Assembly: GCA_041652575.1 (NCBI GenBank)
Contig: JBAZHC010000008.1
Location: 46,022 to 110,021, forward strand
DNA length: 64,000 nucleotides
From: Phycisphaerae bacterium
GTDB taxonomy: Bacteria > Planctomycetota > Phycisphaerae > Sedimentisphaerales > UBA12454
Reading direction: 5' to 3'
Under the pieces are notes generated by a model. It saw only the letters and a list, made by a program, of their open reading frames with translations, made no database searches and was not told where the DNA came from. Shown here in pieces: positions 33,659-39,217 of this stretch. Each line of letters opens with the position of its first letter. Within the stretch, counting starts at the first letter, position 1. Position numbers and translations under genes: made by a program.

Positions 33659-34678
33659 TTAAACATCCCTGCCGATAGCCTGCGCTATGGCTTTAAGCTG
33701 TGGCATAAGTTCCGAAAGAGTTGCGGGAGTAATTGATTGCGCCCCGTCGCTCAATGCGTGTTCAGGGTCGGGGTGACACTCGATAAGCAAACCGTCAGCG
33801 CCTGCCGCTACTGCCGCCCTGCACATCGCCGGCACAAGATGCGCATGACCTGTTCCGTGCGACGGGTCAACAACTACAGGCAGATGCGTCTTGTCTTTAA
33901 GCTCCGGCACAATCGCCAGCGCAAGAGTATTGCGGACATATTCCTCATAAGTTCTTATTCCTCTTTCGCAGAGAATAACCTGAGAGTTCCCCGCGTTGAT
34001 TATATACTCTGCGGCAAGTAAAAATTCATCGAGTTGAGCGCTCATCCCGCGTTTTAACAGCACCGGCTTTTTGACTTTTCCCAGCGCCTCGAGCAGCGGA
34101 TAATGCTGCATATTTCTGGCGCCGATTTGCAGAACATCTACATATTCAGCGACAATATCAATATGTTCGACCGCAACAACTTCTGTAATCACAGCAAGAC
34201 CGGTTTGCTTTTTAGCTTTTGCGAGAATTTTAAGTCCTTCCACGCCCAGTCCCTGAAAGCTGTAAGGACTCGTTCGCGGCTTGAATGCCCCCGCCCGAAG
34301 CCCGATACAGCCGGCAGCAGCGACTTTTTCAGCAGTCTGCATAAGCTGTTTTTCATTTTCGACAGAACACGGCCCTGCTATTACGCCTATTTTTTTACCT
34401 CCCATAGGAAAAGCATTTGCGCCGATTTTTATTTGTGAATATTCCCTTTTAACTTCTCTTGAGGCGATTTTATATGGCGCAAGTATCGGCACAATGCGTT
34501 CGACATTCGGAGCATTCTCAATTGCTCCTTTGTCAACCATCCGTTTGTCGCCAAGACAGGCTATAACCGTCCTGTTTGTGCCGACTATTATATGTTCTTT
34601 TAAGCCGAATTCATTTACCAGTTCCACGACATGTCGAACATCCTGCTCAGTTGCGACTGGTTTCATTACAATTATCAT
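33659..34678 (-). CDS. aroF: DAHP synthase, class I-beta with N-terminal regulatory domain
   Basis: IAGPCSVE, GAFKPRTSPYSFQGLG, QIGARNMQ, LLKRG, LCERGIRT, VDPSHG. Confidence 0.95.
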   Translation of the reverse strand: MIIVMKPVATEQDVRHVVELVNEFGLKEHIIVGTNRTVIACLGDKRMVDKGAIENAPNVERIVPILAPYKIASREVKREYSQIKIGANAFPMGGKKIGVIAGPCSVENEKQLMQTAEKVAAAGCIGLRAGAFKPRTSPYSFQGLGVEGLKILAKAKKQTGLAVITEVVAVEHIDIVAEYVDVLQIGARNMQHYPLLEALGKVKKPVLLKRGMSAQLDEFLLAAEYIINAGNSQVILCERGIRTYEEYVRNTLALAIVPELKDKTHLPVVVDPSHGTGHAHLVPAMCRAAVAAGADGLLIECHPDPEHALSDGAQSITPATLSELMPQLKAIAQAIGRDV

Positions 34679-35547
34679 TTTTTGTCTCCCATAACGGCCT
34701 TAAAAGCCTGCGGCAGATAATCCATAATATCCGTCGCGATTAAACTTATCTGACATTTCTCTTCCGCCGCCAAATCGCCGGCAAGACCGTGAACATAAAC
34801 TCCCGACACCGAAGCGTCAAAATTATCGAATCCCTGTCCGCACATCGCGGCAATTATTCCCGTAAGCACATCGCCGGCCCCCGCCGTCGCCATTCCCGGA
34901 TTGCCTGTAGTGTTAACATAAATTTTTTCAGCATCGGCAACTACCGTTTCGTGTCCTTTCAGCACAACAACAGCCTTGGCCGCTTTAGCAAATTCAGCAG
35001 CTACAGCTCCCCTGTCCACAGGCTCCGGTTTTCGCAAAAGTCCGTCCCAAAGTCTTTTCATTTCGCCCGGATGAGGTGTGAGGATAAGATTTGCTTTATT
35101 AATATCAGGCCAGTTTTTCAAAGCGGCAAGATTATTCAGTCCATCGGCGTCAATCAAAAGTCTCAACCCTTCCAGCCGCAGGAGATTTTCGAGTACTGCT
35201 TTTACGCCATTGGCAACGCCGACGCCCGGCCCAAATGCAACGATATCATTTTCCTCGACAGCTTTCAAAACCGCATCAATTGCTTTTGCACCGATTTTGC
35301 CAGACGAATCTTCAGCCAGAGAAATTGTCGTATAACAGGGTTCGATAGCCGCCACAATCGGCAATATACTTTGCGGCACAGCGACTCTGACAAGGCCGGC
35401 ACCGCTTCGCAGCGCGCTTTTGCCGGCAATTGCCGCAGCACCGCTGAAACCGACACTGCCCGCTATTATGCAAACCTTTCCGAAATCGCCCTTATGAGTA
35501 TCAATCGCTCTTGGTTTTATCTTCGGGATATTTTTTATTATCTGCAT
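34675..35547 (-). CDS. nnrD: ADP-dependent NAD(P)H-hydrate dehydratase (stand-alone)
   Basis: HKGDFG, AGSVGFSGAA, GAGLV, FGPGVG, IDADGL, TPHPGEM, VVLKG, NPGMATAGAGDVLTG. Start at MQIIK (35547). Confidence 0.94.
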   Translation of the reverse strand: MQIIKNIPKIKPRAIDTHKGDFGKVCIIAGSVGFSGAAAIAGKSALRSGAGLVRVAVPQSILPIVAAIEPCYTTISLAEDSSGKIGAKAIDAVLKAVEENDIVAFGPGVGVANGVKAVLENLLRLEGLRLLIDADGLNNLAALKNWPDINKANLILTPHPGEMKRLWDGLLRKPEPVDRGAVAAEFAKAAKAVVVLKGHETVVADAEKIYVNTTGNPGMATAGAGDVLTGIIAAMCGQGFDNFDASVSGVYVHGLAGDLAAEEKCQISLIATDIMDYLPQAFKAVMGDKK

Positions 35548-35567
35548 ATAAACTCCTTTATCGAAAC

Positions 35568-35596
35568 ATTTTACATATAACACAAGGTATGGTCAA
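35568..35596 (-). promoter_or_regulatory. Sigma70-type promoter for nnrD-aroF
   Basis: TTGACC (35596-35591), 17-nt spacer, TAAAAT (35573-35568). Confidence 0.65.
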
Positions 35597-35669
35597 TAAA
35601 AGAATTGACATCAATAGATGAGTTGACATATTGTTTATTTATCTATTCTTAAGATAGAAAGGCTTGACC

Positions 35670-37178
35670 ATGAAACAAAGTTTTGTAACCGTCACTGTTC
35701 TTGTTTTATGCAATTTGGTTTTTGCACAAACCACTTCTATTTTTCCGGCAGACAACGCTAAGCAGGTAAATCCGGACACGCATCTGATGCTTACTTTCCC
35801 CGGTGAGCCAACCTTAGGTGATTCAGGACAGATTCGCATTTATGACGCGGCAGACGACCGGCTTGTTGACGTTCTTGATATGAGCATCCCTGCCGGCCCG
35901 ACAACCAGCGACAAAACCTCTGTACCTTATACCGCAATTCCTTACAAATACGTCTCCGGCCGCTTAACCAATGCCAACACTAAACCGGGAACTCCATCCG
36001 GCACTGCACTCACCACGTCCGACAACTATCAGCTCACGATTATCGGAGGCTTCACCGACGCGTTTCACTTTTATCCGGTGATAATCCACGGTAGCGTGGC
36101 GACGATATATCCTCATAATAATCTTCTGGATTACAATAAAACATATTACGTACAGATTGACCCCGCAGTACTGACCCTAAGCGATGGCACTTTCTCCGGA
36201 ATCACAGGGAAAACAGGATGGACCTTCACAACGAAAAAAACACCACCATTAAAAAATAAACAGCGGCTCGTAGTCTCCGGCGAGGGCAAAGGTGATTTCA
36301 GCACCGTGCAGGGAGCGATAGATTTTCTCCCCGATAAAAATCCCAAACGTGTAACAATATTTATCAAAAACGGCACGTATGAGGAAATAGTATATTTTCG
36401 CAATAAGACAAACATCACCTTCCTCGGCCAGGATAGGAATAAAACTATAGTATGTTATGCCAATAATGAAGTCTTCAACCCGCATCCGTCAAATGTAGCC
36501 ACCAACGAGTGGCCGGGCACTTTCCCTTCCCGCCGTGCTGCGTTCATGGGAGATAATTCAAAAGGCATTCACCTGATAAATTTCACTATCAAAAACTTAA
36601 CGCGAGGTCAGGCCGAAGGTCTGCTTTTGATGGGCGAGCAAAATATCGTCAGCAATGTTAATATTGTAGGTTCAGGTGACGCCTTGCAGGTCAACGGCTC
36701 GGTTTACCTGACCGACTGCAAAATTACAGGCGATGGAGATATAATCCTCGGCCGCGGGCCTGCGTTCTTCAATAACTGCGAACTCATTTCAACCGGCGGC
36801 ACCTTTATGTGGATTCGCAACACAGCCGCTAACCACGGCAATGTCTTTTTGAATTGCAGGTTTCAAACTTTAAATGGACGCGAAACTGAAATCGCCCGTG
36901 CGCCCACCAATAAAGGCAATAATTACCCATACTGCGAAGCGGTATTAATAAACTGTGCCCTTTCAGGCATCAGCCCTGTCGGCTGGGGCCCTGTGGGCGG
37001 CGATACGTCGAATGTCCATTATTGGGAATGCAACAGCACTGATTTCGATGGTAAACCAATTGATGTGAGCCGGCGCAGCGGCGTTTCCAGACAATTGGAT
37101 AAAAAGAAAGACGCCGAGATAATCAAAAATTACAGTAATCCGGCTTATGTACTGGGCGGCTGGAAACCGAAGTTTTAA
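35670..37178 (+). CDS. Pectinesterase-like protein (CE8) with Ig-like N-terminal domain, no dockerin tail
   Basis: Signal peptide; GKGDFSTVQGAID, IKNGTYEE, GQAEG, GDGDIILG; colinear with the 3927-5798 paralog. Confidence 0.82.
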   Translation: MKQSFVTVTVLVLCNLVFAQTTSIFPADNAKQVNPDTHLMLTFPGEPTLGDSGQIRIYDAADDRLVDVLDMSIPAGPTTSDKTSVPYTAIPYKYVSGRLTNANTKPGTPSGTALTTSDNYQLTIIGGFTDAFHFYPVIIHGSVATIYPHNNLLDYNKTYYVQIDPAVLTLSDGTFSGITGKTGWTFTTKKTPPLKNKQRLVVSGEGKGDFSTVQGAIDFLPDKNPKRVTIFIKNGTYEEIVYFRNKTNITFLGQDRNKTIVCYANNEVFNPHPSNVATNEWPGTFPSRRAAFMGDNSKGIHLINFTIKNLTRGQAEGLLLMGEQNIVSNVNIVGSGDALQVNGSVYLTDCKITGDGDIILGRGPAFFNNCELISTGGTFMWIRNTAANHGNVFLNCRFQTLNGRETEIARAPTNKGNNYPYCEAVLINCALSGISPVGWGPVGGDTSNVHYWECNSTDFDGKPIDVSRRSGVSRQLDKKKDAEIIKNYSNPAYVLGGWKPKF

Positions 37179-37198
37179 TCGTCGCAGCCGGCTTTAGC
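37177..37198. repeat. Left direct repeat (att-like): displaced copy of the tsaD 3' end
   Basis: AATCGTCGCAGCCGGCTTTAGC is 21/22 identical to 38185-38206. On the minus strand it encodes AKAGCD(D)* like the tsaD C-terminus. Confidence 0.88.
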
Positions 37199-37226
37199 TT
37201 TAAGTTGAAAATTGGTTAATAAAGAT

Positions 37227-37254
37227 TTGACAAGTAAACGGAAAGTTTTATACT
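37227..37254 (+). promoter_or_regulatory. Sigma70-type promoter upstream of attI-like site (Pc-like)
   Basis: TTGACA (37227-37232), 16-nt spacer, TATACT (37249-37254). Confidence 0.7.
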
Positions 37255-37334
37255 TCTTAAAGAGACAACTTTTGAGGAAATAATGCAATTGGAGTTGTGG
37301 AAGAAAAACCCGAAAGTGGGTTTATCTGGAAATC

Positions 37335-37353
37335 ATATAAACATAAGTTAGGC
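37335..37353 (+). other. attI-like recombination site
   Basis: ATATAAA-CATAA-GTTAGGC: perfect GTTRRRY core with a 5-nt spacer, resembling class 1 attI CCCTAAA-ACAAA-GTTRRRY; 35 nt before the cassette ATG. Confidence 0.5.
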
Positions 37354-37388
37354 CAGTAACATTTCGCAAATACTGATGGAGGTGGGTC

Positions 37389-38039
37389 ATGGGATTAGTA
37401 GAACTGAAAGATGAATATCAAGTCCTCCGAGAAGAAATGCTTCATCGTTTTGAAAAATTGTATGATGTGGAGAAGTATGGAGTTGGTAGTATCCTAGCCT
37501 TGATTGGCTTTAGCGATACCCTCCATTGTGAGAAAATAATCATCTTGATAGTGCTCGAATCCTTGATCCTCATCCTCGGCATATTCGTTATGAATGAATT
37601 CATGATGATTTATCGGCTTGGCACATACATAGCGATTTTCAGCGAAGGTAAGGATGCGAATTCTGCCAAGTGGATTCGAATAAGTCGTCGAGGCCATGAC
37701 TGCTTACAGGCTATCAACGGCAACTTGCCAAAATTCAAGTTGAAAGTGGGGTTTCCATTTACATACGGATGGGGTTCTGATTCTGCGCAATTTGCTATCG
37801 CATTACTTGTTCTGCTGATGGCAAGCTGGGGGAGCTGGTTGGTTACGCGACCAGCATTTAACTGGCAAATCATTTTCCCTATTCTACCGCTTATAGGAAT
37901 TCTCTTTAATGTGCTATGGTTGGTTTGGGGGGTAAAAAAATACCGAAAGACAACAGAAGAGAATTGGATGAAAATCCAAAAGGCATGGGGGACCACCACC
38001 TTTCCTGACCCTTATGAGAATACAACGAACACGAAATAA
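37389..38039 (+). CDS. Hypothetical multi-TM protein (putative gene-cassette ORF)
   Basis: 216 aa, GGAGGTGG RBS, N-terminal EYQVLREEM helix followed by about 4 hydrophobic segments. Stop TAA lies inside the TAAC of the attC-like site. Confidence 0.8.
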   Translation: MGLVELKDEYQVLREEMLHRFEKLYDVEKYGVGSILALIGFSDTLHCEKIIILIVLESLILILGIFVMNEFMMIYRLGTYIAIFSEGKDANSAKWIRISRRGHDCLQAINGNLPKFKLKVGFPFTYGWGSDSAQFAIALLVLLMASWGSWLVTRPAFNWQIIFPILPLIGILFNVLWLVWGVKKYRKTTEENWMKIQKAWGTTTFPDPYENTTNTK

Positions 38040-38099
38040 CTTAACCATTGCACTGAAGCCAAGCTGCAAAATCGCGGCTGGTTTAGCTCCTCGTTAGCA
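38034..38099 (+). other. Degenerate attC-like site
   Basis: AAATAAC...TTGCAC...AGCC...GGCT...TTAGC-TCCTC-GTTAGCA, 66 nt, with TAAC/GTTA ends and an imperfect central stem. L-box pairing is poor. Confidence 0.45.
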
Positions 38100-38154
38100 T
38101 CTTTACCAAAAATATGAGGAAGGGATAATAGCACACCTATCCGCCGACAAATCA

Positions 38155-38173
38155 TTAGTCTTTGGTTTTGAGT
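38155..38173. repeat. Solo heptamer-array arm
   Basis: TTAGTCTTTGGTTTTGAGT is 17/19 identical to 13683-13701 (TTAGTCCTTAGTTTTGAGT). Confidence 0.55.
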
Positions 38174-38182
38174 GCCTATCTT

Positions 38183-39217
38183 TCAATCATCGCAGCCGGC
38201 TTTAGCCTCAATTGTCATATCGGCGAAAAGGCCTGCTTTGTATTTATGAAAGCCGAGCGAAGCTATCATAACTGCGTTATCCGTACAGTATTTTTTAGGC
38301 GCAACCAGCAGTGTTCTGCCGGTTTGCTGAGTCATTTTTTCAAGTTCGTTTCTTAAAAGCGTATTGGCCGCGACTCCGCCGCCGAGCAGAATTGTTTTCG
38401 CTCCGATTCTATCGGCAGCCATTTCAGCTTTCCCAACGAGAACATCTATAACAGCCGCCTGGAACGACGCGGCGATATCAGCGATTTCCTTTGGGTTCAT
38501 CTTTTCGATGCGATTTCCCCCCTTCATATCCTTGCCGCAGCAATGATAAAGAACCGCTGTCTTTAAACCGCTGAACGAGAAATCGAGCGAATCCTTCGCA
38601 AGCATCGTTCTGGGGAATTTAATCGCGGCAGGATTGCCGTCTTTTGCGGCCTTTTCAATACTCGGCCCGCCGGGGTATGGCAGATTTAAAATCGACGCGA
38701 CTTTGTCGAATGCTTCGCCCGCCGCATCGTCAATAGTCGAGCCGAGCAGATGAAGATCGAGAATATTTTTGCACTCATACAAACTCGTATGCCCGCCGGA
38801 AACAACCAGCGCAACGGCAGGAAGCTGTAAGTTCTGTTCATCCATCATTGCCGATTGAAGATGAGCGTGTATGTGATTTATCGCAATCAGCGGTTTTTCC
38901 AAAGCAATCGCAAGTGTCTTCGCGGCAGTCAGTCCGACGATAAGCGCAACGGCAAGCCCCGGCTGATTGGCGACAGCTACCGCATCAATCGAATCCTTAT
39001 CGAGTCCCGACTGTTTAATCGCCTGTTCTACAATCGGATAAATTTTTTCAATATGAGCCCGCGACGCGATTTCAGGCACAACACCGCCGTATTTCTGGTG
39101 AAGCTCTATTTGCGAAGAAATGACATTTGACAGTACTTCTGACCCATTGCGTACCATCGCCGCGGCAGTTTCATCGCAGCTTGTTTCTATACCGAGAATA
39201 TTAATGTCAGATTTCAT
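38183..39217 (-). CDS. tsaD: tRNA N6-threonylcarbamoyladenosine synthesis protein TsaD
   Basis: ILGIETSCDETAAA, YGGVVPEIASRAH, NHIHAH, VSGGHT, DDAAGEAFDK, YPGGP, FSFSGLKTA, GGGVAAN, CTDNAVMIA. Confidence 0.97.
   Translation of the reverse strand: MKSDINILGIETSCDETAAAMVRNGSEVLSNVISSQIELHQKYGGVVPEIASRAHIEKIYPIVEQAIKQSGLDKDSIDAVAVANQPGLAVALIVGLTAAKTLAIALEKPLIAINHIHAHLQSAMMDEQNLQLPAVALVVSGGHTSLYECKNILDLHLLGSTIDDAAGEAFDKVASILNLPYPGGPSIEKAAKDGNPAAIKFPRTMLAKDSLDFSFSGLKTAVLYHCCGKDMKGGNRIEKMNPKEIADIAASFQAAVIDVLVGKAEMAADRIGAKTILLGGGVAANTLLRNELEKMTQQTGRTLLVAPKKYCTDNAVMIASLGFHKYKAGLFADMTIEAKAGCDD
38185..38206. repeat. Right direct repeat (att-like), within the tsaD 3' end
   Basis: AATCATCGCAGCCGGCTTTAGC; see 37177-37198. 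Confidence 0.88.

Follow-up and report, generated by a model that had tools for sequence, protein, structure and literature searches.

A probable integrase-less integron remnant with a widely conserved attI-like element in a 1-kb insertion at tsaD of a Phycisphaerae bacterium

The window analysed here is a 64,000-nt stretch of DNA from a Phycisphaerae bacterium (order Sedimentisphaerales), part of contig C8 of a genome bin (2.98 Mb, 97% complete) from a groundwater metagenome. About 1 kb of it, between a pectinesterase gene and tsaD, contains only one convincing open reading frame (ORF), located at 37389 to 38039 and named ORF216. This islet is probably the remnant of an integron platform that lacks an integrase gene, and it lies within 1008 bp of DNA inserted where tsaD ends. 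A preliminary description made from the sequence alone had read the locus as a mini-integron without integrase. That reading is largely right, on stronger grounds than those given at the time. The evidence agrees better with a relic whose present role is that of an expression unit than with a satellite that is still active. The features on the integron side of the islet are the following (an arrow marks the boundary of a unit).

37205 to 37347, plus strand: gene-less unit of 143 nt, from G↓TTGAAAATTGG to ...CATAAG↓TT, carrying the promoter and the attI-homologous element
37227 to 37254, plus strand: sigma-70-like promoter TTGACA-16-TATACT, resembling a cassette promoter (Pc), 11 of 12 consensus positions matched, reading towards the cassette; a sequence match only
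37269 to 37353, plus strand: attI-homologous conserved element (CE), placed by homology to a conserved block, start approximate
37305 to 37323, plus strand: small hairpin within the CE
37322 to 37331, plus strand: second CE repeat TTATCTGGAA, followed by ATCATATAAACA and then by the core
37347 to 37353, plus strand: CE core GTTAGGC, the 3' end of the CE
37348 to 38093, plus strand: candidate gene cassette of 746 nt, comprising a 5' untranslated region (UTR), ORF216 and an attC-like 3' region
37378 to 37382, plus strand: Shine-Dalgarno sequence GGAGG in the 5' UTR of the cassette
37389 to 38039, plus strand: ORF216, starting 35 nt after GTTAGGC, a predicted membrane protein with four long helices
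38039 to 38099, plus strand: attC-like site ACTTAAC...GTTAGCA, aligned with GCCTAAC...CTCGTT of metagenomic contig L028

The CE, named in this analysis, came to light because the left part of the islet shares 30 nt with contig C26, which belongs to the same bin. In the window, box CTTTTGAGGAAATAAT comes first; a degenerate first repeat, GGAGT-TGTGGAAG, which has lost 4 nt, and the hairpin follow in that order. The second repeat and the core together are identical to the consensus at 25 of 26 positions; a third repeat and intI, the integron integrase gene, are absent from the islet. The core GTTAGGC at 37347 is preceded by ATCATATAAACATAA and is one of only two plus-strand copies in the window, where the general motif GTTRRRY occurs 80 times. 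The likeness to attI that had been proposed from this motif is borne out by homology to a conserved block that, in other genomes, separates the end of intI from the first cassette. Judged by homology and position, 37269 to 37353 has the properties expected of an attI site, namely a GTTRRRY core and variable cargo after G↓TT.

The CE family is widespread. Its members are about 70-85 nt long and follow the consensus GTGTTATCTGGAAGCAA-ACCCGAAAGCGGGT-TATCTGGAAACCATATAAACA-NNN-GTTRGGC. At loci with intI, three direct repeats TTATSYGGAA (TTAT(G/C)(C/T)GGAA...ATAA) lie between the intI stop codon and G↓TT. A 38-nt pattern, allowing up to 3 mismatches, was found in 18 of 301 genomes of the order and its reversed control in none. 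Exact copies of a 26/27-mer occur in 20 metagenome-assembled genomes (MAGs) from at least eight phylum-level lineages, and the genomes with the 27-mer are labelled Acidobacteriota, Sumerlaeota, Nitrospiraceae, Pirellulales, Sedimentisphaerales, Zixibacteria, Neomarinimicrobiota, Eubacteriales and others. The 26-mer is further present in at least 120 metagenome contigs; viral contigs gave no match. In 156 unique copies from many phyla, CATATAAACA is followed by GAA-GTT-AGGC, with GTT in register in 129 of them. Conservation stops just past GTTRGGC, and the composition is random from 11 nt onward. The ORFs behind the CE start 7-52 nt downstream; 145 of them fall into 141 clusters, all oriented like the element. 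The CE matched no Rfam family (a search of 36500 to 39000 at E ≤ 10 gave a chance microRNA match only), has no significant fold and contains no consensus sigma-70 hexamers of its own. Two other identities were rejected: the CE is not a canonical attC, given the GTT...AAC polarity of its arms and the missing significant fold, and its modules are not generally linked to tRNA genes, an arrangement seen in only 2 of 120 contigs.

The association with integron integrases is positional. At least 17 loci have intI or a C-terminal remnant of it directly upstream of the CE and on the same strand, with 127 nt from the end of the gene to the hairpin and 136-140 nt to the second repeat. In the Acidobacteriota locus L107, intI ends 127 nt before the hairpin and is recognised by TIGR02249 in two frames (151.7 + 305.4 bits). 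In L114, a full IntI is followed by a diverged site of the CE build. C-terminal remnants at the same fixed distance are found in L113/L120, L112, L049, L095, L116 and L117, and in L101 the remnant lies only 35 nt upstream. Canonical attC sites follow the CE-adjacent ORFs of L107, L113 and L098. Because intI genes or their remnants stand at a fixed distance directly upstream, the CE is, as far as sequence context can tell, the attI region of "inverted" integrons, in which the integrase gene points in the same direction as the cassettes. Among metagenome contigs with enough upstream sequence (n=59), an IntI remnant precedes the CE in 10 and nothing recognisable in 49.

Some details of these loci deserve mention. 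L107 and L114 are two contigs of one Acidobacteriota MAG, and both intI genes are split into two frames at about residue 128, which could reflect a homopolymer assembly error, decay or a shared frameshift. At nine loci with exact CE matches (L131, L133, L146, L153, L159, L160, L180, L188 and L200), a C-terminal intI stub of 18-90 aa, never the full gene, ends 136-140 nt before the second repeat box; the retained stub may hold a needed promoter or binding site. As an attI of the order's classical integrons, the CE was ruled out, since none of the 17 IntI loci checked has one.

The second line of evidence comes from the ORF216 cassette. An ORF starting 35 nt past the attI-like motif had been described and is present. 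The protein matched no family above cut-off in Pfam, NCBIfam or PADLOC. AlphaFold2 predicted four long helices with a predicted local distance difference test (pLDDT) score of 87.5, and Foldseek gave no PDB match with E < 0.5 for this fold. The family is rare, with 51 representatives at E ≤ 0.001 among 1.84 billion sequences clustered at 50% identity. The closest relative, and the only close one in a word-based search, shows about 70% protein identity and is encoded on the short metagenomic contigs L028 and L029. A scan of genome contigs that used the protein alignment gave nothing. DNA homology between the window and L028/L029 starts exactly at GTTAGGCCAG (G↓TTAGGC) and ends at ...CTCG↓TT, with unrelated flanks. 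The 5' breakpoint in L028 coincides with the final heptamer of a model attC (GCCCAAC...GTTAGGC) that belongs to the upstream ORF and folds well on its bottom strand (-23.4 kcal/mol, z = -6.0). In the homologue P0003 (43% identity), the gene is followed by GTCTAAC...GTTAGGC, with the stop codon within R''. Because the unit occurs in two independent contexts with breakpoints at both G↓TT, 37348 to 38093 can be classed from its sequence as an integron cassette with G↓TT boundaries on both sides. The earlier proposal of a cassette at about this position thus stands for the boundaries, which coincide with the L028 breakpoints, and for the cassette-borne homologues; the predicted hairpin of its own attC-like site is no better than chance.

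The settings of two ORF216 relatives are of note. In L028 (1-110 and 1760-1815), a two-cassette block with the ORF216 ortholog lies just past an apparent tRNA 3' end (GGTTCAATTCCCTGCACCGCCACCA) and is flanked by imperfect repeats that hold CGTGCTAAT twice, with CTCGTT before each. In another family of the order, a 37%-identical homologue (L009, G050:C31, 887-2148) follows a HicB/HicA-like pair; neither a CE nor a clear attC is found there.

At the 3' end of the cassette, the stop codon TAA (38037-38039) is embedded in TAAC, as previously described, GTTA follows 53 nt later, and GTTAGCA occupies 38093-38099. The inverse core is set one step to the right of its former placement, such that ACTTAAC (38039-45) corresponds to GCCTAAC in L028. 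R'' (ACTTAAC) fits RYYYAAC, and the current R' (GTTAGCA) departs from GTTRRRY at 2 of 7 positions. The window and L028 share a conserved sequence at this 3' site, the hairpin is weak in both, and restoring the R' of the circular form brings no better fold. The site was judged by folding statistics and breakpoints. A scan of the collected loci recovered 6 distinct candidate attC-like sites, not all of them real attC and too few for training an attC model.

Upstream of the cassette, the near-consensus promoter reported earlier is present at 37227-37254. Matches of at least this quality number 7 in the window, compared with 1.5 expected in random sequence of the same composition. Promoter and CE lie on the gene-less unit. 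Its start, G↓TTGAAAATTGG at 37204, is one base after the left of two direct repeats that flank the islet, and GTTGAAAATTG has its single occurrence in the window there. The corresponding gene-less unit of cassette arrays found elsewhere starts with G↓TTGAATAGCGAATTGAGAA, right after a canonical attC. Tandem arrays in which this gene-less CE unit alternates with ORF cassettes were observed in L061 / L108 (G295:C89) and likewise in L104, L134, L143, L170, L181, L206, L232 and L236; their cassettes end in canonical attC sites (GCCCAAC...). These arrays suggest that the attI unit can itself act as a landing pad or as a cassette without a gene.

The bin has a second CE copy on C26 (locus L037, 575-1165), between the 3' end of a DEAD-box helicase gene and a rluA-like gene; this copy precedes an unrelated Cys-rich ORF of 136 aa. 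Genome G054 (L045) has the same CE-plus-gene block with 82% identity over 597 nt. An empty site for the C26 copy was not found among the relatives, in which synteny is not conserved. C26 carries a second rluA paralogue and may derive from another strain in the bin.

The islet as a whole is an insertion. Its order is left repeat, gene-less attI unit with promoter, ORF216 cassette, 87 nt and right repeat, set between the following features.

35664 to 37178, plus strand: pectinesterase gene, flanking the islet
37173 to 37203, no strand assigned: left direct repeat, the displaced original tsaD 3' end, whose stop codon overlaps that of the pectinesterase gene
38094 to 38180, no strand assigned: segment of 87 nt between the cassette end and the right repeat
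38181 to 38211, no strand assigned: right direct repeat, the 3' end now used by tsaD
38183 to 39217, minus strand: tsaD, flanking the islet (TsaD Pfam E = 2.5e-95)

The two copies of the 31-nt direct repeat are identical at 27 of 31 positions and spaced by 1008 nt, and the reverse strand of both reads ...AKAGCDD-stop, the C-terminus of TsaD. In two genomes of the same genus (G004 and G005), the pectinesterase stop codon overlaps the tsaD stop codon with nothing in between. Because of these empty sites and the flanking repeat, the islet can be identified as an insertion of 1008 bp, by which the tsaD end was duplicated while the gene itself stayed intact; the att-like repeats postulated in the preliminary description are derived from the tsaD end. 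An independently assembled Logan contig from the source sample crosses both islet junctions with 0 differences. In a landfill sample, the islet flanks are covered at 2.6x by fragmentary contigs. Excision joints were not found in the Logan contigs of the source and landfill samples, which are contig-level data only. The 87-nt segment resembles nothing else in the genome and is unrelated to the L028 flank. The 17-nt core of the repeat has no other copy in the genome, only chance-like matches with 2 mismatches, and neither an integrase cognate to the tsaD repeat nor an element with a related att site was found there. The 27/31 duplication fits the integration of a small circle with a mimic of the tsaD end, through some recombinase. 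Homology-anchored illegitimate recombination, with a donor having the module downstream of its own tsaD, fits as an alternative route of arrival.

The islet has no room for intI, as had been stated, and the search of the whole genome was negative as well: the best TIGR02249 match reached 86 bits, where the cut-off is 265, and every match was Xer-like or phage-type. A hairpin scan of the whole genome for canonical attC sites returned only a tRNA and two unconvincing sites. The earlier proposal of a functional capture platform that relies on an IntI from another place in the genome is not supported, as the 97% complete assembly has neither IntI nor canonical attC. Within the order, IntI exceeds the cut-off in 10 of 301 genomes. 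One of the same genus, G009, has a classical integron with attI, a toxin-antitoxin cassette and attC (L081, G009:C111). Its intI scores 420 bits with one in-frame TGA, the attI ends in ...TTTGCAAGTTAGGAATC and differs from the CE, an antitoxin/toxin pair forms the first cassette, and the attC is 117 nt long (GCGCTAAC...GTTAGGC).

Several observations weigh against reading the locus as an integron remnant. The 66-nt TAAC...GTTA stretch, previously called an imperfect palindrome, folds no better than shuffled sequence (-6.2/-6.7 kcal/mol as DNA on the two strands, z = +0.38/+0.49); R'' and R' are complementary at only 4-5 of 7 positions and do not pass a strict R''/R' filter. The window copy of the CE has the 4-nt deletion in its first repeat and an altered upstream box. 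None of the 10 over-cut-off IntI genes of the order has an adjoining CE. Behind the CE-adjacent ORFs elsewhere, an attC passing a crude filter was found in only 2-4 of 31 cases, and at least 15 contigs carry CE-ORF-attC units in tandem, something not expected from a single attI per integron. Finally, integron chemistry leaves the insertion at tsaD unexplained, because GTT is missing from the repeat core and IntI does not duplicate its target.

Four other explanations were weighed against the integrase-less remnant. The CE could mainly be a portable expression leader (promoter or 5' UTR) that travels with or between cassettes and is no recombination site. Its constant position 7-52 nt ahead of the start of a co-oriented ORF, the small conserved hairpin, the recurrence before each ORF in tandem arrays, the joint inheritance with the downstream gene in C26 and G054 and the scarcity of clear attC sites behind CE-adjacent ORFs all suit such a leader. 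It is nevertheless an unlikely account, given that conservation stops exactly past GTTRGGC and is followed by 141 unrelated cargo families, that the ORF216 unit moved without the CE and with its breakpoint at G↓TT, that the CE keeps a fixed distance from intI stops, that the CE unit of arrays begins at the G↓TT of the preceding attC, and that the element has no consensus sigma-70 hexamers, Rfam match or significant fold of its own. The roles of leader and recombination site are not mutually exclusive. Somewhat less probable still is an active satellite capture platform, an integrase-free pad of attI and promoter that is loaded by an IntI encoded elsewhere. Orphan copies are indeed the rule (49 of the 59 contigs are without an upstream intI remnant), the near-identity of the CE across phyla argues for continuing selection on the site, the cargo differs at nearly every copy, and an integron exists in a genome of the same genus. 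Against this stand the 97% complete genome without IntI or another attC, the partial loss of a repeat box from the window CE, the weak attC of the cassette, and contigs of the source sample that show no polymorphism or excision product at contig level.

That an integrase placed a single cassette at a random secondary site of the genome (attG, leaving a single attC), with a merely coincidental resemblance to attI, is very improbable. As Loot et al. (bioRxiv 10.1101/2022.09.11.507474) showed, IntI inserts cassettes at genomic GWT sites, and those that come to lie close to a promoter are expressed, yet the 85 nt upstream of the ORF216 cassette are homologous to an intI-linked block and hence not random host DNA, the entire 1008 bp and not just the cassette are missing at the empty sites, and insertion by IntI makes no 31-nt target duplication. 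That the islet is nothing but an ordinary intergenic stretch with chance motifs, or a product of misassembly, can practically be dismissed: short motifs such as GTTRRRY and TAAC are common, as the 80 GTTRRRY occurrences illustrate, but the empty sites in relatives and the independent contig across the islet refute this explanation, as does a 38-nt pattern that is conserved across phyla with a reversed control of zero.

For the integrase-less remnant, a simple mode of action can be proposed. The promoter would start constitutive transcription through the attI block, and ORF216 would be made from its own Shine-Dalgarno sequence. Since this genome has no recombination enzyme for it, the unit would be static or inert unless a compatible IntI arrives on another element; such an incoming IntI could insert cassettes at G↓TT (37347/37348) or excise the ORF216 cassette. 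A broader and rather speculative proposal, to which we give a minor but real chance, is that the attI-type block is a mobile, integrase-free landing pad: a gene-less G↓TT-bounded unit that spreads across phyla and seeds cassette insertion points, including those of the tandem attI-cassette-attC arrays, usually apart from intI and served in trans by rare IntI carriers. The islet would then be one such satellite parked in tsaD.

Among known systems, attI1 of class 1 integrons offers a comparison for the CE. It consists of a simple site and the direct repeats DR1/DR2, which are bound by IntI1. In both, repeat boxes precede a GTTRRRY core, where the variable cassettes start. The three CE repeats are reminiscent of the accessory IntI-binding repeats of attI1, and the last ~16 nt of the CE appear to resemble AAACAAAGTTAGGC. 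In contrast, there is no sequence homology beyond the core, and the position relative to intI differs. Gene-less cassettes are another parallel, in that the 143-nt unit at 37205-37347 is G↓TT-bounded and has equivalents alternating with ORF cassettes in arrays; its 3' site, however, is an attI-like block and not an attC-type palindrome. With integrase-less att-flanked islands (cis-mobilisable, decayed), the islet shares a small insert, an imperfect duplication of a housekeeping gene's 3' end, an intact gene and an empty site in relatives. It differs from them in its integron cargo and in that the genome yielded neither a cognate integrase, including one acting in trans on its att repeats, nor a related att site.

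The locus is closest to material of the CALIN and SALIN type, that is, clusters of attC sites and single attC sites without integrase (Cury et al. 2016, PMC4889954; Loot et al., bioRxiv 10.1101/2022.09.11.507474). It shares cassette material without a nearby intI and, as in most CALINs, no recognisable intI pseudogene adjoins. Whereas those classes are defined by attC alone, the attI-type site and the promoter are best supported here and the single attC is weak. With at most one candidate attC, the islet falls short of the two or more without nearby intI that make a CALIN; a SALIN by definition has no neighbouring att site, unlike the islet with its adjacent attI-type site, and a complete integron would have an adjacent intI, which the islet does not. 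A group of integrons with the integrase oriented like the cassettes has been described, with Treponema named (Cury et al. 2016, PMC4889954). L107, L114 and the remnant loci resemble it, as their CE comes after the intI stop codon, shares the strand of intI and precedes cassettes with attC; the window differs in having no intI at all.

The interest of the locus lies mainly in the conserved and mostly orphan attI family. For most integrons outside the clinical classes, attI sites are unknown (Cury et al. 2016, PMC4889954), and integrase-less integron material is therefore recognised only via attC. The searched literature yielded no paper with the CE sequence and no description of its near-identity across phyla or its mostly orphan state. 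The CE provides a searchable attI family of about 70-140 nt, with three repeat boxes and a GTTRGGC core, that is tied to inverted-orientation integrons and present in many phyla. Most copies are orphaned or stand beside a truncated intI, nearly each before a different gene, and the window adds a dated example, as one copy came with a promoter in a 1-kb insertion whose empty site is kept by relatives. If the site is active, it would offer a handle on cassette expression and exchange in integrase-less genomes, and an attI-based class could be placed beside CALIN and SALIN.

Gene-end duplications around other CE loci were limited to one doubtful 35-nt case. In a Sedimentisphaerales MAG (L099, minus orientation), an imperfect direct repeat (1234-1268 / 2920-2954, 28 of 35 positions) brackets a CE and a 453-aa ORF, with no obvious gene end as its origin; possibly, a second module flanked by repeats is present here. 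Comparison of 34675-39217 of the window with L011-L022 shows that what lies downstream of tsaD varies within the genus. A NAD(P)HX dehydratase gene directly follows tsaD in G002, gaps of 100-940 nt are found in G010, G007, G009 and G011, and a convergent pectinesterase gene lies beside tsaD in G004, G005, G008 and the window genome. In G008 (L022, G008:C235, ~252-348), the stop codons of the pectinesterase gene and tsaD are separated by 95 nt of filler, which consists of two similar GC-rich hairpins, GGGCAGACACATGGGTCTGCCCC / GGGGCGAACCCATGTGTTCGCCC, and resembles a small palindromic repeat element.

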